From positions 6,045-70,044 of the forward strand of contig JAKPFN010000089.1 in NCBI GenBank assembly GCA_029551395.1: a DNA stretch of 64,000 bases, read 5' to 3'. Position numbers and translations under genes: made by a program. The notes beneath the pieces were generated by a model, which was not told the origin of the DNA, did not search any database, and worked only from the letters and a program-made list of their open reading frames with translations. Source of the DNA: Armatimonadota bacterium. GTDB lineage: Bacteria; Armatimonadota; UBA5829; DTLH01. Positions 3,720 to 60,704 of this stretch are shown here, in pieces; the stretch's first letter is position 1; each line of letters opens with the position of its first letter.

Positions 3720-3854
3720 GCCAAGTCCAGTTGATGGGAAGGTATGAGTTGGGTTTACTCATCACTCATCACTCGTTACTTCCCCACTTTACACTCGCTT
3801 TGTTCAATTCTGTGTTACAATAGATAGGCAAAATAGCAATTAAGATACAGGCGG

Positions 3855-10509: not shown

Positions 10510-11259
10510 CTACCATCGGTAATCGAACTGTACTGGCGAGTCTTTGGGCAGTGGGTAAGTATTTAACAGTTTTTCCTGCACAAATCTCGAGTGACCGTCG
10601 CAGAACAGCACATTAACGCCGCCCCTGTGCCGCTCACGAACCTGCTCTAATAAGAATTTATAGTTTCCGCCATAGAGGTCAGTCCAGGTACAGTCCATAA
10701 TGTATGCAACCCTAGAAGGCGTCCGGATCTCTGATTCTGTCGGTAATTTATCTGCCCACCAGTTCGGATTAGTAATATCCATTCCGGCCAAGGCAATGTT
10801 TATACCGTAATGGCACGGTATATAAGGGAAGCCATTTTTGCCGTTAGTATCATACCATACCCATCCACAGTCTCTGTCTGTTATTCTCTCCTCATTAGTT
10901 TGAATAGTACGTCGATCCTTGGGTACTTCTTCATATAAAATTCTAGGTGCAGATGGGCATCTATAAATGGCAAGGTTTTTCCCATACTTTTGAAGCAAAT
11001 ACGGCCAGGAATGCCATGTTCCATAAGGCCAACCTGCTGCCGGAAGGTAGCGGTCGTTCCAATCAGCATTGTAAGCTTTGAAAGCTAGACCCATCTGTCT
11101 TTGGTTAGATAAGCACTTAACGTCTCGTCCTTTTGATCGTGCCGCAGAAAATACCGGAAAGAGAATCGCTGCTAAAATTGCAATTATTGCGATTACGACA
11201 AGCAGCTCGATAAGTGTAAATCCGCGTTTGTTCATTTCTTCCCCTGTCCTTTTATTCAT
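10510..11259 (-). CDS. Prepilin-type N-terminal cleavage/methylation domain protein (DUF1559, H-X9-DG family)
   Basis: N-terminal '[30 protein letters not shown]' is the class III signal / pseudopilin helix. C-terminal '[11 protein letters not shown]' is the H-X9-DG-like motif. 249 aa. Confidence 0.8.
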
Positions 11260-11489: not shown

Positions 11490-12542
11490 TCATGGCCCAG
11501 TTTTTACTACCAGGCTATAGAGATTTTGCTGCAGGAGACCGCCCTGATCATCAGAAATCATGATGAGACTCCAGGTATTTCCTCCCAAATGAGGTCCTAG
11601 TGCCAGACCTTCGTAGTTGTCCAGCGGAAACCGTCTTTCCCAAAGCAACCGCTTGCCTACCGGTGTGTAGTCATTGCCTGAGAGGCCATTGTTGAGCTTT
11701 GATACATCTGCTGCGTTGTCAAATACAACTTCATAAAGCCTGATACGGAAGTCAGGGATACTCAGCGAGGCGAACTCTCTGATATCTGCTTCTCTCTCCA
11801 GAACGATAATCGTTCCATCAGGCAGCACAGCAAGGTCGGATACCCCGCTGCGTTCGCGGTTGTCAATTGGCGAGGTAGAGCGGATTGGATCCGTTATATA
11901 GGCCCACTGACCTACTGGTTCCAGGTTCTTGTTCAGCTTGATTAACCTTACTACTGTGCCCTGTTTAGTCGTGGAAGGCTCCCCATCTCCTTCCAGTGCT
12001 TCTTCATTCGCTGTCCAGAGTGCCCACTGTTTTGTCTCGAGTGCAAGCGATTCAAGTGAAAGGTTGTCTCGAACATTCTTCAGTACAGCAGGTAGGGGAT
12101 TTGAGATGCTCAACGTGCGGATTGAGTTAAGCGGCTCCGAACTTTTTGTTTTTAGACGATATTTCCTGATTACAGTCCCGGATTCATCGCTTGTATAGAT
12201 TGCTCCTTCAACTGCATCGTAAGCAATGCCTTCAAGGTCTCCGCCTTCGGCCAACTGCTGTTTGGAGGCGATTTTGGCCGATAGAATAGCGCCTGTAGAC
12301 ATGTTTAGCTCGACATGGATGCCATACAGTGTCCGTGACCTGTCTGAAACTGCGTAGTAAAGAAAAGTGTCCCGTTCTCCTGTTACCGGACCTGCGTATG
12401 TAAGGCCGCTCAATCCGATAACCTGCTCGCTGCCGGATATCTGAACGCTGCCAATGCCCTTGATTTCTGCTCCAAAGGCTGAGATTTGGCACAGTAAGAG
12501 TGTTATTGAAATAATACATACTATTATGCGTAGTCCTGGCAT
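11490..12542 (-). CDS. Secreted hypothetical protein (possible phytase-like/beta-propeller fold)
   Basis: 350 aa with an N-terminal signal peptide ('IVCIISITLLLCQISAFGA'). Beta-rich, no catalytic motif recognised with confidence. Confidence 0.35.
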   Translation of the reverse strand: MPGLRIIVCIISITLLLCQISAFGAEIKGIGSVQISGSEQVIGLSGLTYAGPVTGERDTFLYYAVSDRSRTLYGIHVELNMSTGAILSAKIASKQQLAEGGDLEGIAYDAVEGAIYTSDESGTVIRKYRLKTKSSEPLNSIRTLSISNPLPAVLKNVRDNLSLESLALETKQWALWTANEEALEGDGEPSTTKQGTVVRLIKLNKNLEPVGQWAYITDPIRSTSPIDNRERSGVSDLAVLPDGTIIVLEREADIREFASLSIPDFRIRLYEVVFDNAADVSKLNNGLSGNDYTPVGKRLLWERRFPLDNYEGLALGPHLGGNTWSLIMISDDQGGLLQQNLYSLVVKTGP

Positions 12543-12967
12543 TGCTCTACCTCCGGCAATCAGTATACAGTTAATATCAGGATATGTGGTAGCAGGTTTT
12601 TTCTTTTGTCATACCGAACATAACACTTCATGCACCTTAGGATGACGCTCAATACCTTTGAGGGTGATGGTTATACCGTCATGCTGAACTTGCTTCAGCA
12701 TCTCCTCACAAACATGGGACCTAGCATCAGGCTGCTCCATAAACATAAAATAATCGCTGCAAAATAGCTCCGTGTATCTGTTTTACTGCGGCTTTATGCC
12801 ACCGGTATAATTGCTGGGGTAATATTCCACACCCTCAATTTGTGAATTTCCCTTTATTTTTACCTAAACAGTGGAACATTCCCGACTTTTCATCAGTCAA
12901 TTAATCCGAGGGCCGTGTAGCTAACGTTCTTTAAAGTAAGAAATTTGCAAAACGGCTGAGTTGTCCG

Positions 12968-13415: not shown

Positions 13416-14240
13416 ATGCTAGCTATCAACCGAAGGAAGAGCGGATTTACACTAATCGAGCTCCTGGTCGTCATTGCGATCATAGCTATCCTAGCAGCAA
13501 TCCTGTTCCCGGTTTTCGCAAGAGCTAGAGAGGCAGCAAGAAAATCTTCCTGCCAGAGCAATATGAAAGAGCTGGGTACGGCTGTAGCCCTGTATTTTGG
13601 TGACTATGATGCCATGCTCCCCAGTTCCATTCTTTATGGTGGTTCGGCAACTTGGAACACCAGCAACTTCATGAACTTTGCAATGGAAAGAGGCACATTG
13701 CCTCCAGATCCAAATGTTGGTTATGGTGTTAATGGAGTAGCGCAGTCTTGGCCGATGCTTCTTTACCCGCACATGAAGAACAAAGACATCGTGTGGTGCC
13801 CATCTGACCCTAACAAGAGTGAGGATCCAAGATCTAGAGTATCTTACTGGTATAAAGCTGCAATCGATGCTGCATGGTACGGCGGACCAGCTGGTAATGG
13901 CGCATTCTGCCGTAAGGAAGGCGATTTTGATTACCCTGCAGACCAGGTTATCTTCTATGAGGCCCGTGGTTGGCACTGGGGCGACACCAGCAAGGGATTC
14001 AAGAATGGTGTTACCTTGAATATGTGCTACATAGATGGACACGTGGCAGCCAAGAGAATCGCTGCCAGTGGTTATATGGGTATTTCCAATATTAACCAGC
14101 ATCTCGCATTGCCTGGCAGTTCAGCCGGTCAAGGTGAGCCTGCATGGTTCAACTACAACTATGAAGTTGCAAACACTTCTCAGCCTTACGTGGTTGGGCA
14201 GTTCTGGGATCCGCATATCTACGGAGACAACCTCCCGTAA
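13416..14240 (+). CDS. Prepilin-type N-terminal cleavage/methylation domain protein (DUF1559, H-X9-DG family)
   Basis: '[30 protein letters not shown]' N-terminus. 'GWHWGD...[13 protein letters not shown]' C-terminal motif. Strong RBS 'AAGGAGG' 7 nt upstream of the ATG. 274 aa. Confidence 0.85.
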
Positions 14241-14272
14241 AGCTATACTCGATATTCATAGTATAAGCTAAC

Positions 14273-14311
14273 AAGCGGACCTGCTTTACAAGCAGGTCCG
14301 CTTGTTTTTGT
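14273..14311 (+). terminator. Rho-independent terminator
   Basis: Perfect 14-bp stem 'AAGCGGACCTGCTT'-TAC-'AAGCAGGTCCGCTT' followed by 'GTTTTTGT', 30 nt after the DUF1559 stop. Confidence 0.8.
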
Positions 14312-21674: not shown

Positions 21675-22119
21675 ACGTTTTAATTAATGGAAGTGACGAG
21701 TTGCGAGTGATGAGTGATGAGGAGGGAAGTATCCCTGCAACAATTGCTGAATTTAATGGTTTTGGTAAAAACGAAATGGGCAGGAATTGAGCGTGATCTG
21801 AGCTTGGGATGGTGGCTTGTGAGCGTGGATTTCATTTCGTTTTGCATGTTTTTTATTGCACACCTTTCTTTTTGGCTCTTATTGTCTTCTGGGAGTCTGT
21901 TCCGGCCTGTTTTTATAGCCGTTTTCTGGAACGAACTCCCCAATTTGAGCACAAAAATGGCTGTTTGAGTTTGTTCCGACGTTTTTTTATTTATCGATTT
22001 TAGCCTGCGTTTCTGGATGTTTCAGAATTTACTGTTCATAATTATAATACAACAACTCGGCCAAAAAGTACAGAAAAAGTGGGGATATTTCTGGGATATT
22101 TATGGGAACGGATGTTTGC

Positions 22120-22917: not shown

Positions 22918-22925
22918 TTGGCGGA

Positions 22926-23400
22926 GAAGCAAGACCCAGGCGGAAAGTTTTCATATCTGCTTCGATACCTGAAGGAGCATCCAACTCATTAAAGAGATTA
23001 GGATGGATATCCCTGAGATGTGCGCCCCGGATGAATATCCGGGCCGATCGGAGACAATTTTGTTGAATTACATTGCTTTCCACACGGGGACGGGTTGGAG
23101 GTTGGAGATTGGAGATGGATATCTCCGAGATGCCCGCCCCGGATGGATATCCGGGCCGATCGGGAAGCAAGACCCAGGCGGAAAGTTTTCATATCTGCTT
23201 CGATACCTGAAGGAGCATCCAACTCATTAAAGAGATTAGGATGGATATCCCTGAGATGTGCGCCCCGGATGGATATCCGGGCCGATCGGATTACATCGCT
23301 TTCCGCACGGAGAGGGGTTGGAGGTTGGGGATAGATATCCCCGAGATGCCCGCCCCGGATGGATATCCGGGCCGATCGGAAACCATTAGACACTGAAGCG
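22926..23400. repeat. Tandem array: a ~240-bp unit duplicated twice, with four copies of a ~48-nt palindromic repeat
   Basis: 'GAAGCAAGACCCAGGCGGAAAGTTTTCATATCTGCTTCGATACCTGAAGGAGCATCCAACTCATTAAAGAGATTAGGATGGATATCCCTGAGATGTGCGCCCCGGATG' occurs at 22926 and again at 23166. The core repeat '...GGATATCCNNGAGATGYSCGCCCCGGATGGATATCCGGGCCGATCGG' is present at ~23003, 23113, 23243 and 23340. Confidence 0.85.
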
Positions 23401-25242: not shown

Positions 25243-25330
25243 TATAGACTAATTAAAACGGGGCGGTGAGAACTCTCACTGCCCCTTTATTATGTACGAA
25301 ATTAAGCAGAATCTCTCTACTTTCGTCGTG

Positions 25331-25795: not shown

Positions 25796-26002
25796 GAAAT
25801 GATTGGCGGTTTATATAAAACACCATGTAGACAAATATATAGAAGGCTTAGGCTGAGAATAAGCAGTGTTTTATCTCGTCATTCATCACTCGCAACTCTC
25901 CATCAATTTGACTCAGCATCTTTCAGGGAGTATAATCCAATCAGTACAGGGAGTTATTCTCAGGATTATTGACTTGTTCAGCCGCCATACCCTCGGCGGC
26001 TG

Positions 26003-27432: not shown

Positions 27433-28455
27433 TTAAAATACTTTGTTCCCGCAGAGTGATTTTACCTGCTGCATTACGGTTGCAAAAGTATCAAGTGTAA
27501 GCGCCTGCGGGCCGTCGCAAAGCGCCTTTGAAGGTTCCGGATGCACTTCCACCAATAGTCCGTCTGCTCCAGCCGCTGCTGCAGCACAGCAGAGCGACGG
27601 CACATAAGCCCTGTTTCCTGCTGCATGGCTTGGGTCGACCAATACAGGCAGATGGGAGATCGATTTTACTACCGGAATAGCCAGGATGTCGAGAGTATAC
27701 CGCGTGTAAGCCCGGTCAAGAGGATGAACCCCGCGCTCGCATAGGATAACCTTTGAGTTTCCCTGGCAAAGGATGTATTCCGCTGCCAGAAGCCATTCAT
27801 CTATTGTTGCCCCAGGGCCGCGCTTTAATAGCACAGGGACATCCATCCGTCCGACAGCACTTAAAAGCGAGTAGTTCTGCATATTGCGAGCGCCGATTTG
27901 CAGGATGTCCGCGTATTCTGCGATAAGTTCAGCATCGTGCTGGTCCATTATCTCGGTGACTGTCACCATGCCTGTGGCTTCTCCTGCTTCTTTGAGCAGC
28001 TTGAGTCCTTCTACACCCAATCCCTGGAAGGCGTATGGTGATGTTCTGGGCTTGAACGCGCCGCCTCTCAAGAGCTTCGCGCCGGACTTTTCCACAGATT
28101 CCGCAGTCTGCATCAACTGGTCGCGGTTTTCAATGGCACATGGCCCTGCTGCGACGGTAAAAGTGGGCGCTCCTATCTTCACACCCTTGATTTCCACAAC
28201 GCTATCCACAGGGTTGAATTCTCTGGAGGCAAGTTTATAAGCACGGCTGACCTGAGTGACGTGACCGACTCCGGCAAGGCTGTTTAACACTTCCGTAAGA
28301 GTATCCCGTACATCATGAGAGATAGAGCTTGTAATACCGATGGCAACACGCTCGCCTCCGGGGAGTGTCATCGCACGGAGTCCGTATTCAGCAATAGTCT
28401 CTACGACGCGCTCGATATCAGCCTGAGTCGCATCGCTTCGCATAGCAACAATCAT
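27433..28455 (-). CDS. 3-deoxy-7-phosphoheptulonate (DAHP) synthase, class I-beta, with an N-terminal ferredoxin-like regulatory domain
   Basis: N-terminus 'MIVAMRSDATQADIERVVETIAEYGLRAMTLPGGERVAIG' is the FL/ACT-like domain. 'GAFKPRTSPYAFQGLGVEGLKLLKE' and 'PVLVDPSHAAG' are typical of DAHPS/KDO8PS-fold enzymes. 340 aa. Confidence 0.8.
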   Translation of the reverse strand: MIVAMRSDATQADIERVVETIAEYGLRAMTLPGGERVAIGITSSISHDVRDTLTEVLNSLAGVGHVTQVSRAYKLASREFNPVDSVVEIKGVKIGAPTFTVAAGPCAIENRDQLMQTAESVEKSGAKLLRGGAFKPRTSPYAFQGLGVEGLKLLKEAGEATGMVTVTEIMDQHDAELIAEYADILQIGARNMQNYSLLSAVGRMDVPVLLKRGPGATIDEWLLAAEYILCQGNSKVILCERGVHPLDRAYTRYTLDILAIPVVKSISHLPVLVDPSHAAGNRAYVPSLCCAAAAAGADGLLVEVHPEPSKALCDGPQALTLDTFATVMQQVKSLCGNKVF

Positions 28456-28605
28456 CTTTTTTCAGTCCTCTTTCAGGTCGCCGGCAGCAGCCGAAGTTCA
28501 CACCCTTGTTGATAAGCCTGTGGATAACTCAGATTTCTGTTCTCCACAGTGCTTTTCACAGGTTTTTCCACAAAAACCGGCTCAGTTTCCACTATAGTAT
28601 ACAAT

Positions 28606-28966
28606 AAAAGGCCATTAAGTGCGGAACCTTTCAAGTGCGGAATCTTTCAAGTGCGGAATGCGGAATACGGAGTGCGGAATGAAGGGAGAGTTACGAGTGA
28701 TGAGGGATGAGCGGCTGTTAAGTAGCGGCTGGTTCGTAGATTTATCAGCTTGAGCTGTAGTGGTTGTTTGGGATCAAGAGATCCCTCGGTTGCTATTTCG
28801 GAGATGGATTGCAAATCCATCCCCAGTTAGACCCATCCTCATCTGGAGTTACTTGTCCGGGGGGAAATGTAAATTCCCCCGAGCTTGTTTCTCGACTCGT
28901 CACTTATCACTCGCGACTCATCACTTTCCCCTAATTCCGCACTCCGCACTCCACATTCCGCACTTG
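28606..28966. repeat. Composite intergenic element with ~90-bp imperfect terminal inverted repeats and a palindrome-rich centre
   Basis: Left arm: 4x 'AAGTGCGGAAT'-like units plus 'GTTACGAGTGATGAGGGATGAGC'. Right arm is the reverse complement: 'GCTCGTCACTTATCACTCGCGACTCATCAC...ATTCCGCACTCCGCACTCCACATTCCGCAC'. The centre carries 'GATGGATTGCAAATCCATC' and 'GGGGGAAATGTAAATTCCCCC' hairpins. Abuts the stop codon of the 28967..30472 gene. Confidence 0.8.
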
Positions 28967-30472
28967 CTACGGTCTCAGGTAGCGAAGGTAGGTGTAGGTT
29001 ATCGTGTGCTTTTGACCTGGTGGGACGTTTATCTGGCATCTCATAGAGCTTTTAGGGTTCAGGCCGTCTGAGCTTTGCGGCTGGGACTGCACTTCTGCGT
29101 TATCAGTGACTTCCGTTACCTTGCCCTGGACTGACCAGGTTACTTCTACCTCAGATGTCTCGTTTCTAAGGTTTTCCACAATCAGTTGCCCCTGGCTGAC
29201 TACAGGAATATACTCCCGGCTGGATATGACCTGAGTTGGCTGCCGCTCAAGTTCCATTTCTTTGACGGCTGTTCTGATATCTGTAGTGGTTGTCAGTTTG
29301 AGTCTGCCTTCAGCCTTGGGAGAGATATACTTCATATAATCCTGGCTTACCGGTTTACCGTTCTGGACTACCATCACAGGGCCTGTTGTAAGCGGGGCAT
29401 CCAGGGTGTTTTTGATGGCAACGTGCTGATATACCTCTTTGCCTGAGTCAACATCCCACGTGAAAACAACCCGATACGGCACAGTACCGGTCATAATAGT
29501 TGTCATGACAACATCTCCGATTGCCAGGTCCAGTTCCTGTTTGTCATAGAAGTAGAGCGACTGCAGTCCTTCCACTGGAATATTGCTGATGGGAGTTCCT
29601 GTTACGGCTGTTTCATCTTCTTTATACAGCATATCTGCAGACCTGCTGTTACTTATGGCCTGTGATGGTCCTGCTACTGATGGAGGCATTGCTGACAGTA
29701 CAGCCGCTCCTAGTGAGTGAGCAGTCAGAGGGTCCAACTGGTTCTTCAGTGCGAAATTTGGCACTCCAACTACAAAGAGAATATTGCAGTCATCTAAGTC
29801 CTCTACTGTGTTGGTTATGGTGGCTTTCAGAGTTATCCGAGCTTCCTTTGGACTGATAAGATCGAGTGTGTAGGTAGGTGTCCAGTTGATGCCCTGCTGG
29901 AGATACCCCATCCGCACGGTCACATCGTTAACAGGCTTGGAATTGTCTACCTGTATGAGCAGCGGTTGCCCCAGGATACGTGCTGTTTTGACATCTTTTA
30001 TCTGGACGACTTTGACATCCTTACCGGATTTTACTAGTATGAGATCGTTCATCACACCCAGCAGTTCGCCTTCAGTGACGACTTCAGGGGTTGTCAGGCT
30101 GATCTGCACTCCCGTATAGTCTCCAAGCGTCTGCACGAGTTCATTCGGAGACTCAAACTTGATCATGTTTTTGCTGGTAGAGCGGATAGTGTTGACAGCC
30201 GTACCGTTTTCGAGAGTGTAGAACCAGAAAGTACCTGCTGTGGCTCGTGGGATGTAGTCGGTCATGCACCAGCCATCTATCAGGTGCGCTCTACCTTCTC
30301 TGAGGAAGAAGCCGTAACCGTCTTTGAATATGGCTACAGTCTTCGTTTTTGTTTTGAACGTGTTTCCGGGCAAGGCAGCCGCAGACTTACCTTCAGCTCC
30401 GTAGCTTAATACAGCCAGTGTTGATAGAGCCAGAATTATTGCAGTACAGGTCAAAAACCAGAACTTTTTCAT
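28967..30472 (-). CDS. Secreted hypothetical protein
   Basis: 501 aa with signal peptide 'MKKFWFLTCTAIILALSTLAVLSYGAEG'. Beta-rich. No motif recognised with confidence. Confidence 0.4.
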   Translation of the reverse strand: MKKFWFLTCTAIILALSTLAVLSYGAEGKSAAALPGNTFKTKTKTVAIFKDGYGFFLREGRAHLIDGWCMTDYIPRATAGTFWFYTLENGTAVNTIRSTSKNMIKFESPNELVQTLGDYTGVQISLTTPEVVTEGELLGVMNDLILVKSGKDVKVVQIKDVKTARILGQPLLIQVDNSKPVNDVTVRMGYLQQGINWTPTYTLDLISPKEARITLKATITNTVEDLDDCNILFVVGVPNFALKNQLDPLTAHSLGAAVLSAMPPSVAGPSQAISNSRSADMLYKEDETAVTGTPISNIPVEGLQSLYFYDKQELDLAIGDVVMTTIMTGTVPYRVVFTWDVDSGKEVYQHVAIKNTLDAPLTTGPVMVVQNGKPVSQDYMKYISPKAEGRLKLTTTTDIRTAVKEMELERQPTQVISSREYIPVVSQGQLIVENLRNETSEVEVTWSVQGKVTEVTDNAEVQSQPQSSDGLNPKSSMRCQINVPPGQKHTITYTYLRYLRP

Positions 30473-40749: not shown

Positions 40750-40945
40750 TATTCATCCGCCTATCTCTCGGGAGGGATTTGCCGTCTCTCGGGAGGAATT
40801 TGCCGTCTCTCGGGAGGAATTTGCAATTCCTCCCGGACATATTGCTGAGGGATCTGTGATCCCGGATGATTAACAAAAATACCAAGGAACGGGATTGCAA
40901 ATCCCTCTTTTGCTCTTCCGGGCTAAATTGCAAATTTAGCCCGAG
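40750..40945. repeat. Left arm of a ~200-bp imperfect inverted repeat bounding the 41-47.8 kb operon
   Basis: 'CCTCCCGGACATATTGCTGAGGGATCTGTGATCCCGGATGATTAAC(A)AAAATACCAAGGAACGGGATTGCAAATCCCT...CCGGGCTAAATTGCAAATTTAGCCCGAG' is the reverse complement of 47849..~48000. Contains 3 tandem 'TCTCGGGAGG(G/A)ATTTGC' units and the palindromes 'GGGATTGCAAATCCC' and 'CCGGGCTAAATTGCAAATTTAGCCCGG'. Confidence 0.85.
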
Positions 40946-47848: not shown

Positions 47849-48060
47849 TCGGGCTAAATTTGCAAATTTAGCCCGGAATAGTGGATTAGGGATTTGCAAT
47901 CCCGTTCCTTGGTATTTTAGTTAATCATCCGGGATCACAGATCCCTCAGCAATATGTCCGGGAGGGATTGCAAATCCCTCCCGAGAGATGAATCCCTCCC
48001 GAGAGTGTCCCTCCCGAGATAAGGTTCGTCTGGGAGGCTAGGAATCCCCTCACGAGATAG
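47849..48060. repeat. Right arm of the ~200-bp inverted repeat (reverse complement of 40750..40945)
   Basis: 'CTCGGGCTAAATTTGCAAATTTAGCCCGG...GGGATTTGCAATCCCGTTCCTTGGTATTTTAGTTAATCATCCGGGATCACAGATCCCTCAGCAATATGTCCGGGAGG' plus degenerate 'CCCTCCCGAGAG' tandem units. Confidence 0.85.
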
Positions 48061-53724: not shown

Positions 53725-53845
53725 TGAACCTCATAATCTCGCTCGGCCCAGTTATGATTATGTCACAAATCCCTGCAGAACGCAAGAGAGCTTACGCGTT
53801 TTTCAACGGTTTTCCAGCCTAATCTGCCTTGAGCTATAAGGAATT

Positions 53846-55228
53846 ATGACCGTAATATTCCGCACGTCAACTGGTTTTAATGATATGATACTAACAGCTA
53901 TTCTCCAGTTTGAAAGGAAGCACTGTATGGGTCGTAAGCGGGTGGATATGTTAATCATCGCAGTAGTATTTATTGCAGTACTTGCTGTCATTGGTGCAAT
54001 CTGGTTTATAAATTCGAACCGGATGCCTGAAATCAAACTGCCTACACCAGTAATGCCTTCTCCAAATGCTTATGATTACTACACCAGTGCAGGAAACCTG
54101 ATTGTAGACAGCAAGAAAATCGATGAAATAGTTTATGAGCAAACATTTTCAAGAACAAGAACTTCCCCTAAAGTCTACAGTCTGGCGGAAAAGGAAGCTT
54201 TACTTGCCAATAATGAACCGGCATTGCAGATGATGCGCGATGGCTTTGATTATGAGTGCATGGCACCAGTAAGAAGGTCTTTTGATGCTCTGTTTCCGGA
54301 ATTCCGGCATTTTCAGAACTTGGGCAGACTTTTGTATATTGAGTCGCAGATAAAGTCTGCAAAGGGAGACTATGCTGGTGCAATGGATAGCTGTCTCGAC
54401 GGCATATACTTTGGAGTCAATGCCCCTAGCGGAGGGTCACGTATTCACAGGCTCGTTGGTATATCAAACCAGAAAATTGTACGTGAAGATGCCTGGAAAC
54501 TACTGGAGCAGATGGATGCTGGAGAGTGCAGGGCAGCAGCCGGAAGATTGGAGCATATAGTCTCCAAACAACGACCATTCGCTGAAGTATTAGAAGAAGA
54601 GAAATGGTTTGGAATTGGGGCTTTTCAGGAAGCTGTGCAGAAAGAAACAATGGGAGATTTCATCAGTAGTGCTATATATGATGATAATTCGCTCAGGTCA
54701 CGCATTGTGTGGAACATTAGAGCGCTCAAAACCAGCAAGCAGAAGGTTATCCGAAACTACTCAGACTATATGGACCAATTGATCGAGAACGCAAAGAAAC
54801 CTTACGCGCTGCACCTTCCCGACCCACCAACTCCTGATGACCCGGTAAACTCTGTTCTAGCTCCAGTTCTTAACAGGGCCAGATTTTCGGATGAGTTAAA
54901 CCAGCTTCAGAATGAGTTGCTCCTTCTTAAGCTTGCGATTCGGGCTTACAAACTTGATAATGGAAGGTATCCTGCATCACTTTCTGACCTTACGCCTGAT
55001 TATATCAAGTCCATCCCCAGGGACAGGTTTGTTCTGAAGGGGCCAATCAGATACAAACAGCAAGGCAGCAGTTATGTGCTCTACAGTGTTGGCCCTGATG
55101 GAAAAGACGATGGCGGCAAGCCCATAGATAACATAAAAAGCCCGTCAAGACCTAACGCTGATGAACTAAGGTATCATGTCGAAGATAAAAGCAAAGGCGA
55201 TATAGTAGCAGGTATTAATTTAAAGTAA
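53846..55228 (+). CDS. Membrane-anchored hypothetical protein with a C-terminal T2SS GspG-like (pseudopilin globular) domain
   Basis: Likely start 'MGRKRVDMLIIAVVFIAVLAVIGAIWFI' (single N-terminal TM). C-terminal 'LAIRAYKLDNGRYPASLSDL...DRFVLKGPIRYKQQGSSYVLYSVGPDGKDDGG' resembles the GspG C-terminal consensus (nGrYP...DPWG.PY.Y...Y.L.S.G.DG..GG). Confidence 0.5.
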   Translation: MTVIFRTSTGFNDMILTAILQFERKHCMGRKRVDMLIIAVVFIAVLAVIGAIWFINSNRMPEIKLPTPVMPSPNAYDYYTSAGNLIVDSKKIDEIVYEQTFSRTRTSPKVYSLAEKEALLANNEPALQMMRDGFDYECMAPVRRSFDALFPEFRHFQNLGRLLYIESQIKSAKGDYAGAMDSCLDGIYFGVNAPSGGSRIHRLVGISNQKIVREDAWKLLEQMDAGECRAAAGRLEHIVSKQRPFAEVLEEEKWFGIGAFQEAVQKETMGDFISSAIYDDNSLRSRIVWNIRALKTSKQKVIRNYSDYMDQLIENAKKPYALHLPDPPTPDDPVNSVLAPVLNRARFSDELNQLQNELLLLKLAIRAYKLDNGRYPASLSDLTPDYIKSIPRDRFVLKGPIRYKQQGSSYVLYSVGPDGKDDGGKPIDNIKSPSRPNADELRYHVEDKSKGDIVAGINLK

Positions 55229-55229
55229 A

Positions 55230-55262
55230 AGTTACGAGTGGCGAGTGATGAGTAACGAGAAA
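55230..55262 (+). repeat. Copy of the 'GTTACGAGTG(G/A)CGAGTGATGAGTAACGAG' dispersed repeat
   Basis: 'AGTTACGAGTGGCGAGTGATGAGTAACGAG' matches copies at ~21691, 28690 and 60503, and in reverse at 3758 and 25875. Confidence 0.7.
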
Positions 55263-55935
55263 AGCTCAATGTTAAAGTGATTATAAATCCCTCTTGTCTG
55301 GTTTGAGCTAAAAGGAACTATGACAAGTAATATTCGTCAAAAACACTGTAGGTGAGTAAACCTCAGTGTATCAACTTCGTTATTACTGGTGAAGGTGAAA
55401 GCGGAATCGCCCTGCCGCAGACCTTGCTGGGTTTCCCAGCACATCTCTCAATACCGATACTGTTTTGGATGCGGAAGAAACTATGTGGAAGGGCATGGAT
55501 ATGACATATCCCCGTAGTTCTTCCAGCAGCCCCATTCACAAGTCAGAGTAAATGCCTGCCTGGTGCTTAGTACTGCAAACTAAGCGGGTACAATTTAATG
55601 GTCTTTGGTTGTAGTGTAACAATCAATCTGAGGTCGATGTTACGCTGCAATAACAAATACCAAGCTGGACTCTCAAGTAACGAATCTGAGTCTTTTTACT
55701 GCATAATTGCAGCATCATTGCACGAAAGTCTATGGATAAGCATTTTTAAGTTGTGACTGGCAAGCGTGTTGATGTGCTGTTTTGCTCGATAATTTGACAG
55801 GTTTCGTTTCAATATCTATGAAGAACGCAACTTGACACTGAATAGGCCTTCCTATATACTTGAGCCAGTATTATTACCTGGTTTGGAAGGCCTGGAAGAG
55901 GCGCTTTGTGTTCTCTGACGGGAGGTTTATTTATC

Positions 55936-59159: not shown

Positions 59160-60464
59160 TTATTTCATCTCAGCAAATACTTCTTTTGCCGCTGCCAGCG
59201 TAGAGTCTGTATCATCGGCGCTGTGAGCAGTTGATACAAATGCTGCCTCAAACTGCGATGGTGCAAAGTAGAACCCCCGTTCCAGCATCCCGTTGAAAAA
59301 TGCTGCATAGCGCGATGTATTCGATTTCTTAGCTGATGCGTAGTCCGTTACATCAGAAGATGTAAAGAAAATGGTAGACATCGAACCTATCTGATTGCCA
59401 TGCGTCTGGACACCAGCAGATGCTGCTGCATCGAGCAGTCCAAGAGCCAGTCTTTTGCCTTTTTCCTCAAGCTGTTCATAGACGCCAGGTTCCTTCAGCA
59501 TTTTGAGTGTTTCAATGCCTGCTGCAACGGCAAGAGGATTGCCGGAGAGCGTTCCGGCCTGATACACAGGTCCTGACGGGGCTACAAACTCCATAATATC
59601 TTTTCTGCCGCCGTAAGCGCCCATCGGAAGCCCACCGCCTATGATTTTACCCATCGTAGTCAGGTCTGGAATAACTCCCAGCCGTTCCTGCGCTCCACCA
59701 TAAGCGAGCCTGAAGCCTGTAATGACTTCATCGAAGATAAGCACGATGCCGTTGTCATCCGCAATCTGCCGTAGAGCTTCCAAAAACCCCTGTTTCGGCA
59801 ATACTACGCCCATATTTCCTGCTACAGGCTCTACTATGATGCACGCTGTATTTTTACTATGAAGTGCAACGGCTGCACGGACTGCTTCTATGTTGTTATA
59901 GGGGACTGTTATGGTATCTATGGTCAGATTAGGAGGCACACCAGCGCTGTCCGGCATACCGAGAGTGGCAATACCTGATCCGGCTTTTGCTAAGAGGCTG
60001 TCGCTGTGACCGTGATAGCAGCCTTCGAATTTGATGATCTTATCGCGCCTGGTAAACCCTCGCGCAAGTCTGATGGCGCTCATTACGGCTTCTGTGCCGG
60101 AACTGACCAGCCTGACCATCTCGACTGACGGGACAGCATCTACAATCATTTCTGCTAGCGTCACCTCAGCGGCAGTTGCGGCTCCAAACGTGGTCCCGGT
60201 CTCTGCAGCAGCTTTGATTGCGGTGACAATCCGGGGATGAGCGTGCCCGAAGATGAGCGGCCCCCATGAACAAACATAATCAACATACGAATTGCCGTCT
60301 TCGTCGACGATCCTCGAGCCATGACCTTCTTTTATAAAAGCAGGTTGGCTGCCAACGGACTTAAACGCGCGAACCGGGCTGTTAACCCCACCCGGAATGA
60401 GTTTCTCTGCTTTCTCGAATAGTATTTTTGAGTTTGATATATCCAATTGTTTCACCAGGGGCAA
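59160..60464 (-). CDS. hemL: Glutamate-1-semialdehyde 2,1-aminomutase
   Basis: 434 aa class-III aminotransferase with 'FDEVITGFR' and 'YGGRKDIMEFVAPSGPVYQAGTLSGNPLAVAAG', typical of HemL. Confidence 0.9.
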   Translation of the reverse strand: MPLVKQLDISNSKILFEKAEKLIPGGVNSPVRAFKSVGSQPAFIKEGHGSRIVDEDGNSYVDYVCSWGPLIFGHAHPRIVTAIKAAAETGTTFGAATAAEVTLAEMIVDAVPSVEMVRLVSSGTEAVMSAIRLARGFTRRDKIIKFEGCYHGHSDSLLAKAGSGIATLGMPDSAGVPPNLTIDTITVPYNNIEAVRAAVALHSKNTACIIVEPVAGNMGVVLPKQGFLEALRQIADDNGIVLIFDEVITGFRLAYGGAQERLGVIPDLTTMGKIIGGGLPMGAYGGRKDIMEFVAPSGPVYQAGTLSGNPLAVAAGIETLKMLKEPGVYEQLEEKGKRLALGLLDAAASAGVQTHGNQIGSMSTIFFTSSDVTDYASAKKSNTSRYAAFFNGMLERGFYFAPSQFEAAFVSTAHSADDTDSTLAAAKEVFAEMK

Positions 60465-60502
60465 GTATAACAGCGCCCCGAAACCAGTGTCAAACGCAGG
60501 GA

Positions 60503-60640
60503 AGTTACGAGTGATGAGTGATGAGTAACGAGTAGGGGACTTGGCTCAAAATAACAAAGTAACGAACCGTTTCTACTTAACAGCCACTCATACCTCATAC
60601 CCAAGATTCCGCATTCCGCACTCCGAACTCCGCATTTAAA
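60503..60640 (+). repeat. Copy of the dispersed intergenic repeat element (GTTACGAGTGATGAGTGATGAGTAACGAG ... CCACTCATACCTCATACCC ... ATTCCGCATTCCGCACTCCGAACTCCGC)
   Basis: Direct sequence match to arms of the 28606..28966 element and to the reverse-oriented copy at 22120..22250. Confidence 0.75.
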
Positions 60641-60704
60641 CGCTCTAAGTGGGGTATAATAGACTCATCTTTTAAAAGCTTTTGATTCTACCTGGAGGCA
60701 TAAA

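Follow-up and report, generated by a model that had tools for sequence, protein, structure and literature searches.

Heterogeneous tandem heptamers dispersed in intergenic DNA have been described for Xanthomonas (GGGAATC, GGGANTN) and Nostoc (GGGGAYT), where the arrays are often paired convergently on opposite strands, are then capable of forming stem-loops, and differ in length among relatives (Rehm et al. 2015, PMC4692102). For the Xanthomonas GGGAATC repeats, convergent pairing with a fixed polarity, stop-codon anchoring, and absence between divergent genes have been published together with evidence of transcription (PMC4692102). In Beggiatoaceae, Cyanobacteria, and Bacteroidetes, nearly all sets of TAACTGA repeats are in direct orientation and lie shortly upstream of start codons, 1 of 170 being inverted; one of their strands carries stop codons in all three frames, and binding of cold-shock proteins to them has been discussed (MacGregor 2015, PMC4679880). 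Passages of both papers, citing Mrazek et al. 2007, attribute the over-representation of heptamers to polymerase slippage. Here, we analyzed a heptamer-containing element from an uncultured bacterium of the Armatimonadota, a phylum for which no description of such repeats was found in the literature. The element region, positions 28606-28966 of a 64,000-nucleotide stretch of contig JAKPFN010000089.1 (assembly GCA_029551395.1; this whole stretch is referred to as the window), fills the ~360-bp spacer between two genes on the - strand that encode a 501-aa protein and DAHP synthase.

Two further groups of short repeats offer partial parallels. STRR sequences are short tandemly repeated repetitive heptamers of the cyanobacteria Calothrix and Nostoc, and REP/BIME sequences protect upstream mRNA from 3'-5' exonucleases and attenuate read-through. 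STRR and TAACTGA repeats, for both of which roles at the RNA level have been proposed, resemble the repeats described here in being genome-wide heptanucleotide tandem arrays that lie almost exclusively in intergenic DNA and near gene ends. The TAACTGA repeats also share with (GAGTGAT)n the stop codons in all three frames of one strand. In place of direct repeats near start codons, the arrays at 28.6 kb form a long inverted pair that extends from a stop codon. REP/BIME sequences of enterobacteria and REPINs of Pseudomonas are matched in that short imperfect palindromes are clustered in alternating orientation in 3' untranslated or intercistronic DNA. Unlike in REP/BIME, the palindromic units are placed inside a much larger heptamer-array hairpin, and no REP-associated tyrosine transposase (RAYT) was seen in the window.

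Compared with the Xanthomonas and Nostoc repeats, the element is built from heptamers of the GCGGAAT and GAGTGAT types, which have no propensity for G4 formation; each arm combines two heptamer families in one phase, and 9-unit arms enclose an unusually long spacer of 191 nt that is filled by a second repeat class. Length differs among relatives in Xanthomonas and Nostoc. In the Armatimonadota strains, which are at least 99.3% identical, heptamer copy numbers were constant and a 16-nt terminal unit varied. Thus, the kind of element is already known, namely inverted intergenic heptamer arrays. New are its occurrence in this phylum, the heptamer sequences, and a composite build that combines long arms, a long spacer, and REP-like palindromes.

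We interpret the element as a slippage-built, non-mobile mosaic of inverted heptamer repeats that probably serves as a 3'-end RNA hairpin or insulator, a function to which its position and its folding point. The probability that we attach to this interpretation is roughly 0.55. It replaces the label of a possible mobile element, given in a preliminary description of the locus, by that of a hairpin mosaic of inverted heptamer repeats, located where gene order changed recently, and it adds Armatimonadota to the phyla with intergenic heptamer repeats that are convergently paired and anchored at stop codons. What such repeats do has been asked ever since the first description of the cyanobacterial STRRs, and a very long, clean example beside the well-understood DAHP synthase gene would offer a convenient test case for termination, stabilization, and insulation of transcripts.

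Composition of the 28.6-kb element

An inverted-repeat search delimited two arms of 64 nt with 80% complementarity at 28648-28711 and 28903-28966. This is the longest inverted repeat with arms no more than 400 nt apart in the whole window. Mirror-image arms had been noted before, and they are indeed present; their earlier length of ~90 bp, however, was overstated, as the strictly matched arms comprise 64 nt. The left side seems longer because its terminal 16 nt (AAGTGCGGAATCTTTC) are tandemly repeated 2.7 times at 28617-28659 (Tandem Repeats Finder (TRF), period 16, 96% matches). Each AAGTGCGGAATCTTTC unit is pairable with the 12 nt that end the right arm, and the tandem lengthens the left arm outward.

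Period-7 arrays were detected by TRF in both arms (4.3 and 4.1 copies). Repeat search, TRF, and phase alignment together resolved the left arm into one unbroken array of nine in-phase heptamers, which from unit 1 to unit 9 read GCGGAAT, GCGGAAT, ACGGAGT, GCGGAAT, GAAGGGA, GAGTTAC, GAGTGAT, GAGGGAT, and GAGCGGC. The right arm, read on the - strand, likewise consists of nine heptamers: GCGGAAT, GTGGAGT, GCGGAGT, GCGGAAT, TAGGGGA, AAGTGAT, GAGTCGC, GAGTGAT, and AAGTGAC. As evident from this comparison, each arm shifts in phase from GCGGAAT-type to GAGTGAT-type heptamers. The outer five units correspond one-to-one between the arms, including the non-repeat junction GAAGGGA/TAGGGGA, and the inner units have diverged. 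The one-to-one match of outer units and junction therefore argues for an inverted duplication, after which the inner units drifted apart. Most likely, an array of ~35-60 nt was duplicated locally in inverted orientation and then underwent replication slippage; the terminal 16-nt unit is still polymorphic between strains. The arms are a convergent pair of degenerate arrays, purine-rich at the 5' side and pyrimidine-rich at the 3' side on either strand.

The two motifs from which the arms had been thought to be assembled do recur elsewhere in the window. GTTACGAGTGATGAG was found 15 times with up to 3 mismatches (1.3 expected), and GTGCGGAAT had 28 occurrences with up to 1 mismatch against 14 expected. 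The reuse of both motifs thus stands, but not their role as modules of terminal inverted repeats: they represent two degenerate heptanucleotide tandem-repeat families joined in phase. Period 7 was the sole enriched tandem period of the window (8 segments, compared with 0-1 for the lags 4-12). Arrays of the GAGTGAT type are also present at 3.76, 21.7, 25.9, 55.2, and 60.5 kb, and a GCGGAAT-type array is present at 60.6 kb, which brings the other intergenic sites with these heptamers to at least six. All arrays of either type in the 64-kb window lie between open reading frames (ORFs). The intergenic members of the GAGTGAT/ATCACTC family occupy 3755-3781, 21697-21721, 25870-25900, and 55231-55260, and a related, shorter composite is located at 60502-60636, where a GAGTGAT-type array is followed by a 50-nt spacer, CTACTTAACAGCCACTCATACCTCAT, and an ATTCCGC-type array. 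What this composite has in common with the 28.6-kb element is restricted to the arm-side junction CTACTTAACAGCCRCTCATMCCTCAT and the ATTCCGC array. Alignment with 60470-60660 placed a common segment, CTACTTAACAGCCGCTCAT (- strand), within a 14-nt direct repeat (AGCGGCTGTTAAGT/AGCGGCTGGTTCGT, 28710-28737, found by repeat search) at the inner edge of the left arm.

The 191-nt spacer contains the palindrome GGGATCAAGAGATCCC at 28770-28785, with like units at 40849-40863 and 47931-47945, and two palindromic units with ATTGCAAAT-like centers. The first of these units spans 28797-28827 with the core GATGGATTGCAAATCCATC at 28803-28821. The second, TGTCCGGGGGGAAATGTAAATTCCCCCGAG, spans 28853-28883 with the core GGGGGAAATGTAAATTCCCCC at 28860-28880. 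Both cores are the central palindromes pointed out in the preliminary description, and the echo of the inverted repeats at 40.7 and 47.9 kb proposed there proved to be real. ATTGCAAAT occurs 7 times in the window with 1.0 expected, and six of the seven copies fall into three loci at 28.8, 40.8, and 47.9 kb; GGGATC-N-GATCCC has 3 occurrences with 0.01 expected. Units of the form CTCGGG..ATTGCAAAT..CCCGAG and GGGATC..GATCCC recur at the same three loci. Positions 28769-28826 aligned with 47931-47986 over 57 nt at ~75% identity (score 45; shuffle maximum 28), and the unit at 28853-28883 aligned with the reverse complement of 40809-40839 over 31 nt at ~87% identity (score 40; shuffle maximum 24). 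Each alignment was tested against 300 shuffles and beat all of them. The loci at 40.8 and 47.9 kb are themselves the arms of a 124-nt, 93% inverted repeat (40806-40929/47865-47988) composed of clusters of palindromic units that are shared in type with the center of the 28.6-kb element. Thus, the element is a mosaic of two resident repeat classes, heptamer arrays and REP-like palindromic units, and as such a fairly ordinary intergenic repeat mosaic whose 7-base tandem repeats and small palindromes are those that the genome also carries elsewhere.

The 124-nt inverted repeat brackets a 7-kb operon of four genes, which encode a NuoE-like protein, a NuoF/pyridine-nucleotide oxidoreductase fusion, a ferredoxin, and a GltB-like protein. 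No transposase was found inside this operon. Tandem repeats of 21 nt and 18 nt, at 40764-40824 and 47973-48019, flank the 124-nt arms.

Folding and genomic context

The RNA of positions 28600-28975 was folded for both strands. The sense (-) strand gave -163.9 kcal/mol (z = -10.8) and the + strand -160.5 kcal/mol (z = -8.0); on either strand, 0 of the 100 shuffles from which the z-scores were derived folded as well. Among the 64 arm positions, 51 form Watson-Crick pairs. RNA of the - strand has 6 additional G-U pairs and RNA of the + strand 3, and 4 positions are other mismatches. In the sense RNA, 57 of the 64 arm positions are therefore pairable (51 Watson-Crick and 6 G-U).

The right arm ends at 28966, the base adjoining the TAG stop (28967-28969) of the gene for the 501-aa protein, exactly as had been described. 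This gene (28967-30472, - strand) follows addB and addA, and its product is weakly DUF4139-like. The DAHP synthase gene (27433-28455, - strand) encodes a DAHP_synth_1 domain (Pfam E = 3e-77) with a ferredoxin-like N-terminal domain. Its start is at 28455, 150 nt from the left end of the element, which confirmed the reported position upstream of DAHP synthase. Because the stop codon of the addB-addA-DUF4139 string is directly followed by the right arm, the element would be transcribed as the 3' end of this mRNA. In the sense RNA the two arms would pair to form a stem of ~64 bp (57/64 positions paired) with three or four small hairpins on top. By analogy with REP/BIME and other 3' hairpins, the stem would protect the upstream mRNA by stopping 3'-5' exonucleases and would hinder or end read-through, and a barrier of this kind would insulate the separately regulated promoter/operator region of DAHP synthase at 28456-28616 from upstream transcription. 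Transcription of the element, its folding in vivo, and the insulating effect are what we infer from this arrangement.

Several observations weigh against a hairpin with such a function. A terminator scan revealed no hairpin with a U-tract on the sense strand. With no U-tract behind the stem on this strand, where the nearest T-run is located ~45 nt beyond it, the element does not qualify as a canonical intrinsic terminator; the only terminator-like site is on the + (antisense) strand, at 28858-28881 in the second palindromic unit. The window does contain canonical terminators at other places, such as 25260-25285. The asymmetry in G-U pairs between sense and antisense RNA (6 versus 3) is not significant, and the strain contigs are at least 99.3% identical and thus too alike to reveal covariation. 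Furthermore, the 60.5-kb composite has no significant hairpin (z = -0.98) and is located between divergent genes. For this reason, heptamer arrays in this genome are not always hairpin-forming and may simply fill unconstrained spacer DNA.

A conventional terminator-like hairpin, contrasting with the 28.6-kb element, was noticed at 14270-14306. It consists of a perfect 17-bp palindrome (AACAAGCGGACCTGCTT AAG AAGCAGGTCCGCTTGTT) followed by TTTTG and lies just after a gene ending at 14240.

The element was recovered from 10 independently assembled metagenome contigs, which are 99.3-99.97% identical to the window. Finding the same sequence in all of them shows that it is not an assembly artifact. 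Differences within the element amounted to one single nucleotide polymorphism and one lost 16-nt unit in a single contig (L001), and this loss was the only indel in 19.2 kb of primary alignment (99.9% identity). A lone indel of exactly one tandem unit points to slippage. Heptamer copy numbers were identical throughout these strains, so that only the 16-nt terminal unit varied, and the copy number of the 60.5-kb composite was likewise unchanged in the 10 contigs. The species is present in several digester-type metagenomes and in the NCBI metagenome-assembled genome (MAG) GCA_035406205.1.

Beyond the species level, the nearest named homologues of both flanking proteins belong to Armatimonadota MAGs. 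Homologues of the 501-aa protein (56-60% identity) have other downstream neighbors, and relatives of DAHP synthase (79-86% identity) have genes for a STAS protein or an amino-acid permease upstream, with spacers of 99-327 bp. Among these relatives of either protein no orthologous intergenic region was present, and because their neighbor genes differ, they provide no orthologous spacer for comparison. The spacers upstream of the related DAHP synthase genes contained no heptamer arrays. Comparison of 27433-30472 with loci L138-L141 showed that only this species has the DUF4139-like gene joined to the DAHP synthase gene. Since amino-acid permease and STAS genes take the upstream place in the closest DAHP synthase relatives, gene order indicates that the element sits at a recent breakpoint.

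One Armatimonadota MAG (GCA_030650495.1, L011) proved to be heptamer-rich as well, with arrays of GAGTTAG/CTCTAAA, GAGCGAT, and GTTTAAT/CTTAAAC. At 10560-10794 of this locus, a non-homologous pair of heptamer arrays starts 8 nt past the stop codon of the gene for the 501-aa homologue and shows a modest fold (z = -2.4). At a distance of 2 kb (12410-12700), heptamer arrays lie beside a long non-heptamer palindrome that is mainly responsible for a strong fold (z = -8.6). No period-7 arrays were present in the other relatives covered (L012, L014, L015, and L138-L141; ~100 kb in total). Since L011 is rich in arrays and the other relatives are without them, array richness is patchy within the phylum.

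The behavior of such arrays as a class was assessed by scanning metagenomes with (GAGTGAT)2.4. The scan yielded at least 120 loci (L018-L137) with GC contents of 26-71%, none of those listed being from this organism; they were used for class behavior only, and 91 of the listed loci had enough flanking sequence. Among the matches listed, an inverted ACTC-type partner was located downstream of the array in 32 of 91 cases and upstream in 0 of 91. All 32 paired arrays among these matches read GAGTGAT..loop..ATCACTC, with a median gap of 26.5 nt and a maximum of 146 nt. The polarity of the 28.6-kb element, purine-rich and then pyrimidine-rich, is the same as in these 32 listed pairs. Where both neighboring genes of a listed pair were called, the gene pairs were convergent (7) or co-directional (8) and never divergent (0). 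Of 35 single arrays among the matches listed, 25 had the stop codon of an upstream co-oriented ORF within -20 to +4 nt of their start (median -6 nt). Because the GAGTGAT unit has TGA in each of the three frames, the arrays often provide the stop codon for the ORF upstream. In the metagenome sample, arrays that follow this grammar with (GAGTGAT)n are thus widespread.

Competing explanations

The main rival is neutral. A spacer at a lineage-specific junction could have been filled by slippage-prone arrays and palindromes that have no selected function, the inverted layout being an accident of local inverted duplication. Because the related DAHP synthase genes have a different upstream gene and spacers devoid of heptamer arrays, the junction is young and dispensable in kind, as this explanation would have it. 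The arrays occupy DNA between stop codons and promoter-like sites, as would be expected of unconstrained DNA, the 60.5-kb composite is without a significant fold, the polymorphism that was observed is slippage, and slippage is also the cause to which heptamer over-representation is ascribed in the passages cited above (PMC4692102, PMC4679880, citing Mrazek et al. 2007). Slippage alone, however, hardly accounts for the strict purine-to-pyrimidine polarity of paired arrays (32 versus 0 among the matches listed) or for the lack of listed pairs between divergent genes, and 57 of 64 arm positions have remained pairable in the sense RNA even though the inner units diverged. Weighing these points, we consider purely neutral filling doubtful, though worth taking seriously.

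The same polarity invites a bolder generalization, which we offer only tentatively and regard as improbable. Polar, stop-anchored pairs of heptamer arrays, with the purine-rich arm first and the pyrimidine-rich arm second on both strands, would constitute a distinct, phylum-spanning class of gene punctuation that is made or maintained by a dedicated mechanism and not by slippage. This mechanism may be an enzyme specific for hairpins in single-stranded DNA or selection for a signal that combines stops in all three frames with a hairpin. The 28.6-kb element may then be an unusually large composite member of the class that captured REP-like units.

Quite unlikely, in our view, is a DNA-level array of iterated sites for a protein that binds DNA or single strands (for instance a nucleoid protein, an OB-fold protein of the cold-shock type, or a regulator) and that would thereby determine local topology or influence the DAHP synthase promoter next to it. 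The left arm and the 16-nt repeats are indeed placed just upstream of the DAHP synthase leader, pyrimidine-rich arrays at 25.9 and 60.5 kb end 7-8 nt upstream of -35 hexamers, and the discussion of cold-shock protein binding to TAACTGA repeats (PMC4679880) provides a precedent. A sequence-specific binder is hard to reconcile, however, with heptamers that are highly degenerate within an array and not the same from locus to locus. No consensus promoter was found adjoining the element, and no candidate protein was identified. Moreover, a spacer of 191 nt makes it unlikely that duplex DNA extrudes a cruciform.

Still harder to sustain is the proposal of the preliminary description that the element is a MITE (miniature inverted-repeat transposable element) or another non-autonomous mobile element, with the arms as terminal inverted repeats for a transposase encoded elsewhere in the genome. 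Like the MITEs Nezha of cyanobacteria and Correia of Neisseria, it falls into the size range of 100-400 bp and has long terminal inverted repeats (the 64-nt arms with 80% complementarity) and an intergenic position near gene ends. The non-heptamer junction CTACTTAACAGCCRCTCATMCCTCAT and the ATTCCGC array are shared with the 60.5-kb locus, the spacer modules are dispersed, and the fixed inward polarity of paired arrays is as expected for terminal inverted repeats. However, neither plausible boundary showed a target-site duplication (flanks GGCCATT/AAGTGCGG and CCGCACTTG/CTACGGT), which the preliminary description had proposed to look for. Neither a second two-armed copy nor one with the same center was present in the DNA covered, which comprised the 64-kb window, a further 10 kb outside it, and ~100 kb from relatives. 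The ~48 ORFs of the window encode no transposase, integrase, or RAYT domain. All 10 strain contigs carry the element, so no empty site and no presence/absence polymorphism was seen among them. Plasmids and phages gave no match to the element by blastn. A scan of species-representative genomes, a collection without this organism, for the non-heptamer junction CTACTTAACAGCCNCTCAT returned two chance matches (Rheinheimera and Muribaculaceae). Unlike in MITEs, the arms are degenerate simple repeats whose sequence family varies by locus and genome, no multi-copy full-length family was detected in the DNA covered, and the only polymorphism is slippage of a tandem unit. Thus, in the DNA covered (the window, the 10 kb beyond, and the relatives' loci), the element has no hallmark of mobility besides the inverted repeat itself.

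Least probable of all is a structured regulatory RNA, either a 5' leader or riboswitch of DAHP synthase or an independent small RNA gene: a very strong fold, a position upstream of an amino-acid biosynthesis gene, and the terminator-like + strand hairpin at 28858-28881 would be in line with it, but the arms are simple repeats with no conserved fold, ORFs within the element are short, overlapping, and unsupported, and the riboswitch was rejected since Rfam gave no match at gathering score in the whole window (with thresholds relaxed to E up to 5, two chance snoRNA-level matches of E 1.2 and 3.3) and since the element is absent upstream of the relatives' DAHP synthase genes, which share TGTGGA boxes nearer the gene instead.

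Two further candidates were discarded. A small-protein gene was rejected because of the quality of the ORFs just mentioned. An integron attC site was rejected because the ends CAAGTGCGGAAT and ATTCCGCACTTG lack the RYYYAAC and GTTRRRY core sites, the neighbors are addAB and DAHP synthase, and the window contains no integrase.

DAHP synthase leader and minor observations

The promoter/leader region of DAHP synthase (28456-28616, - strand) lies outside the element. Several TGTGGA/TCCACAGG boxes are present in the leader (28456-28600), and a repeat search located an inverted repeat, CTGTGGATAAC-N10-GTTCTCCACAG, at 28518-28549. Boxes of the same kind were also found upstream of DAHP synthase in three relatives (L138, 5770-6016; L140, 9880-10016; L141, 6960-7320). 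Because the relatives' spacers share these boxes with 28456-28600, the control region of DAHP synthase would lie outside the element. On the basis of this conservation, the boxes are a candidate operator for the control of aromatic amino-acid synthesis. An aromatic-pathway operator was also sought upstream of the EPSP synthase gene at 55.9 kb and was not found there. The 677-nt spacer before the EPSP synthase gene contains a stretch at 55295-55340 that is similar to 53815-53865 (TTGAGCTAWAAGGAAYTATGAC..GTAATATTC); both look like duplicated regions of ribosome-binding site plus start. The 460-aa gene at 53846 may have a truncated paralogue in the stretch at 55295-55340.

Two strong promoter-like sites, each with 11 of 12 positions matching, are those preceded by the pyrimidine-rich arrays at 25.9 and 60.5 kb. 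The first, TTGACT-17-TATAAT on the + strand (25908-25936), begins after the array at 25870-25900, which ends 7 nt before it. The second, TTGACA-18-TATACT on the - strand (60493-60464), abuts the 60.5-kb composite. It would make the mRNA of an aminotransferase gene nearly leaderless because the start codon is called at 60455. A promoter read by hand at 3.79 kb was dropped, its spacer being 22 nt.

On the practical side, metagenome assemblies are interrupted by such repeats, at which several of the strain contigs from this region terminate. A tandem duplication of ~230 bp at 22922-23379, with two copies of ~88% identity, includes a run of GGTTGGA-type heptamers at 23091-23119. Three of the strain contigs (L002, L003, and L004) end at ~23316-23334, within this duplication, which suggests that it breaks assemblies.

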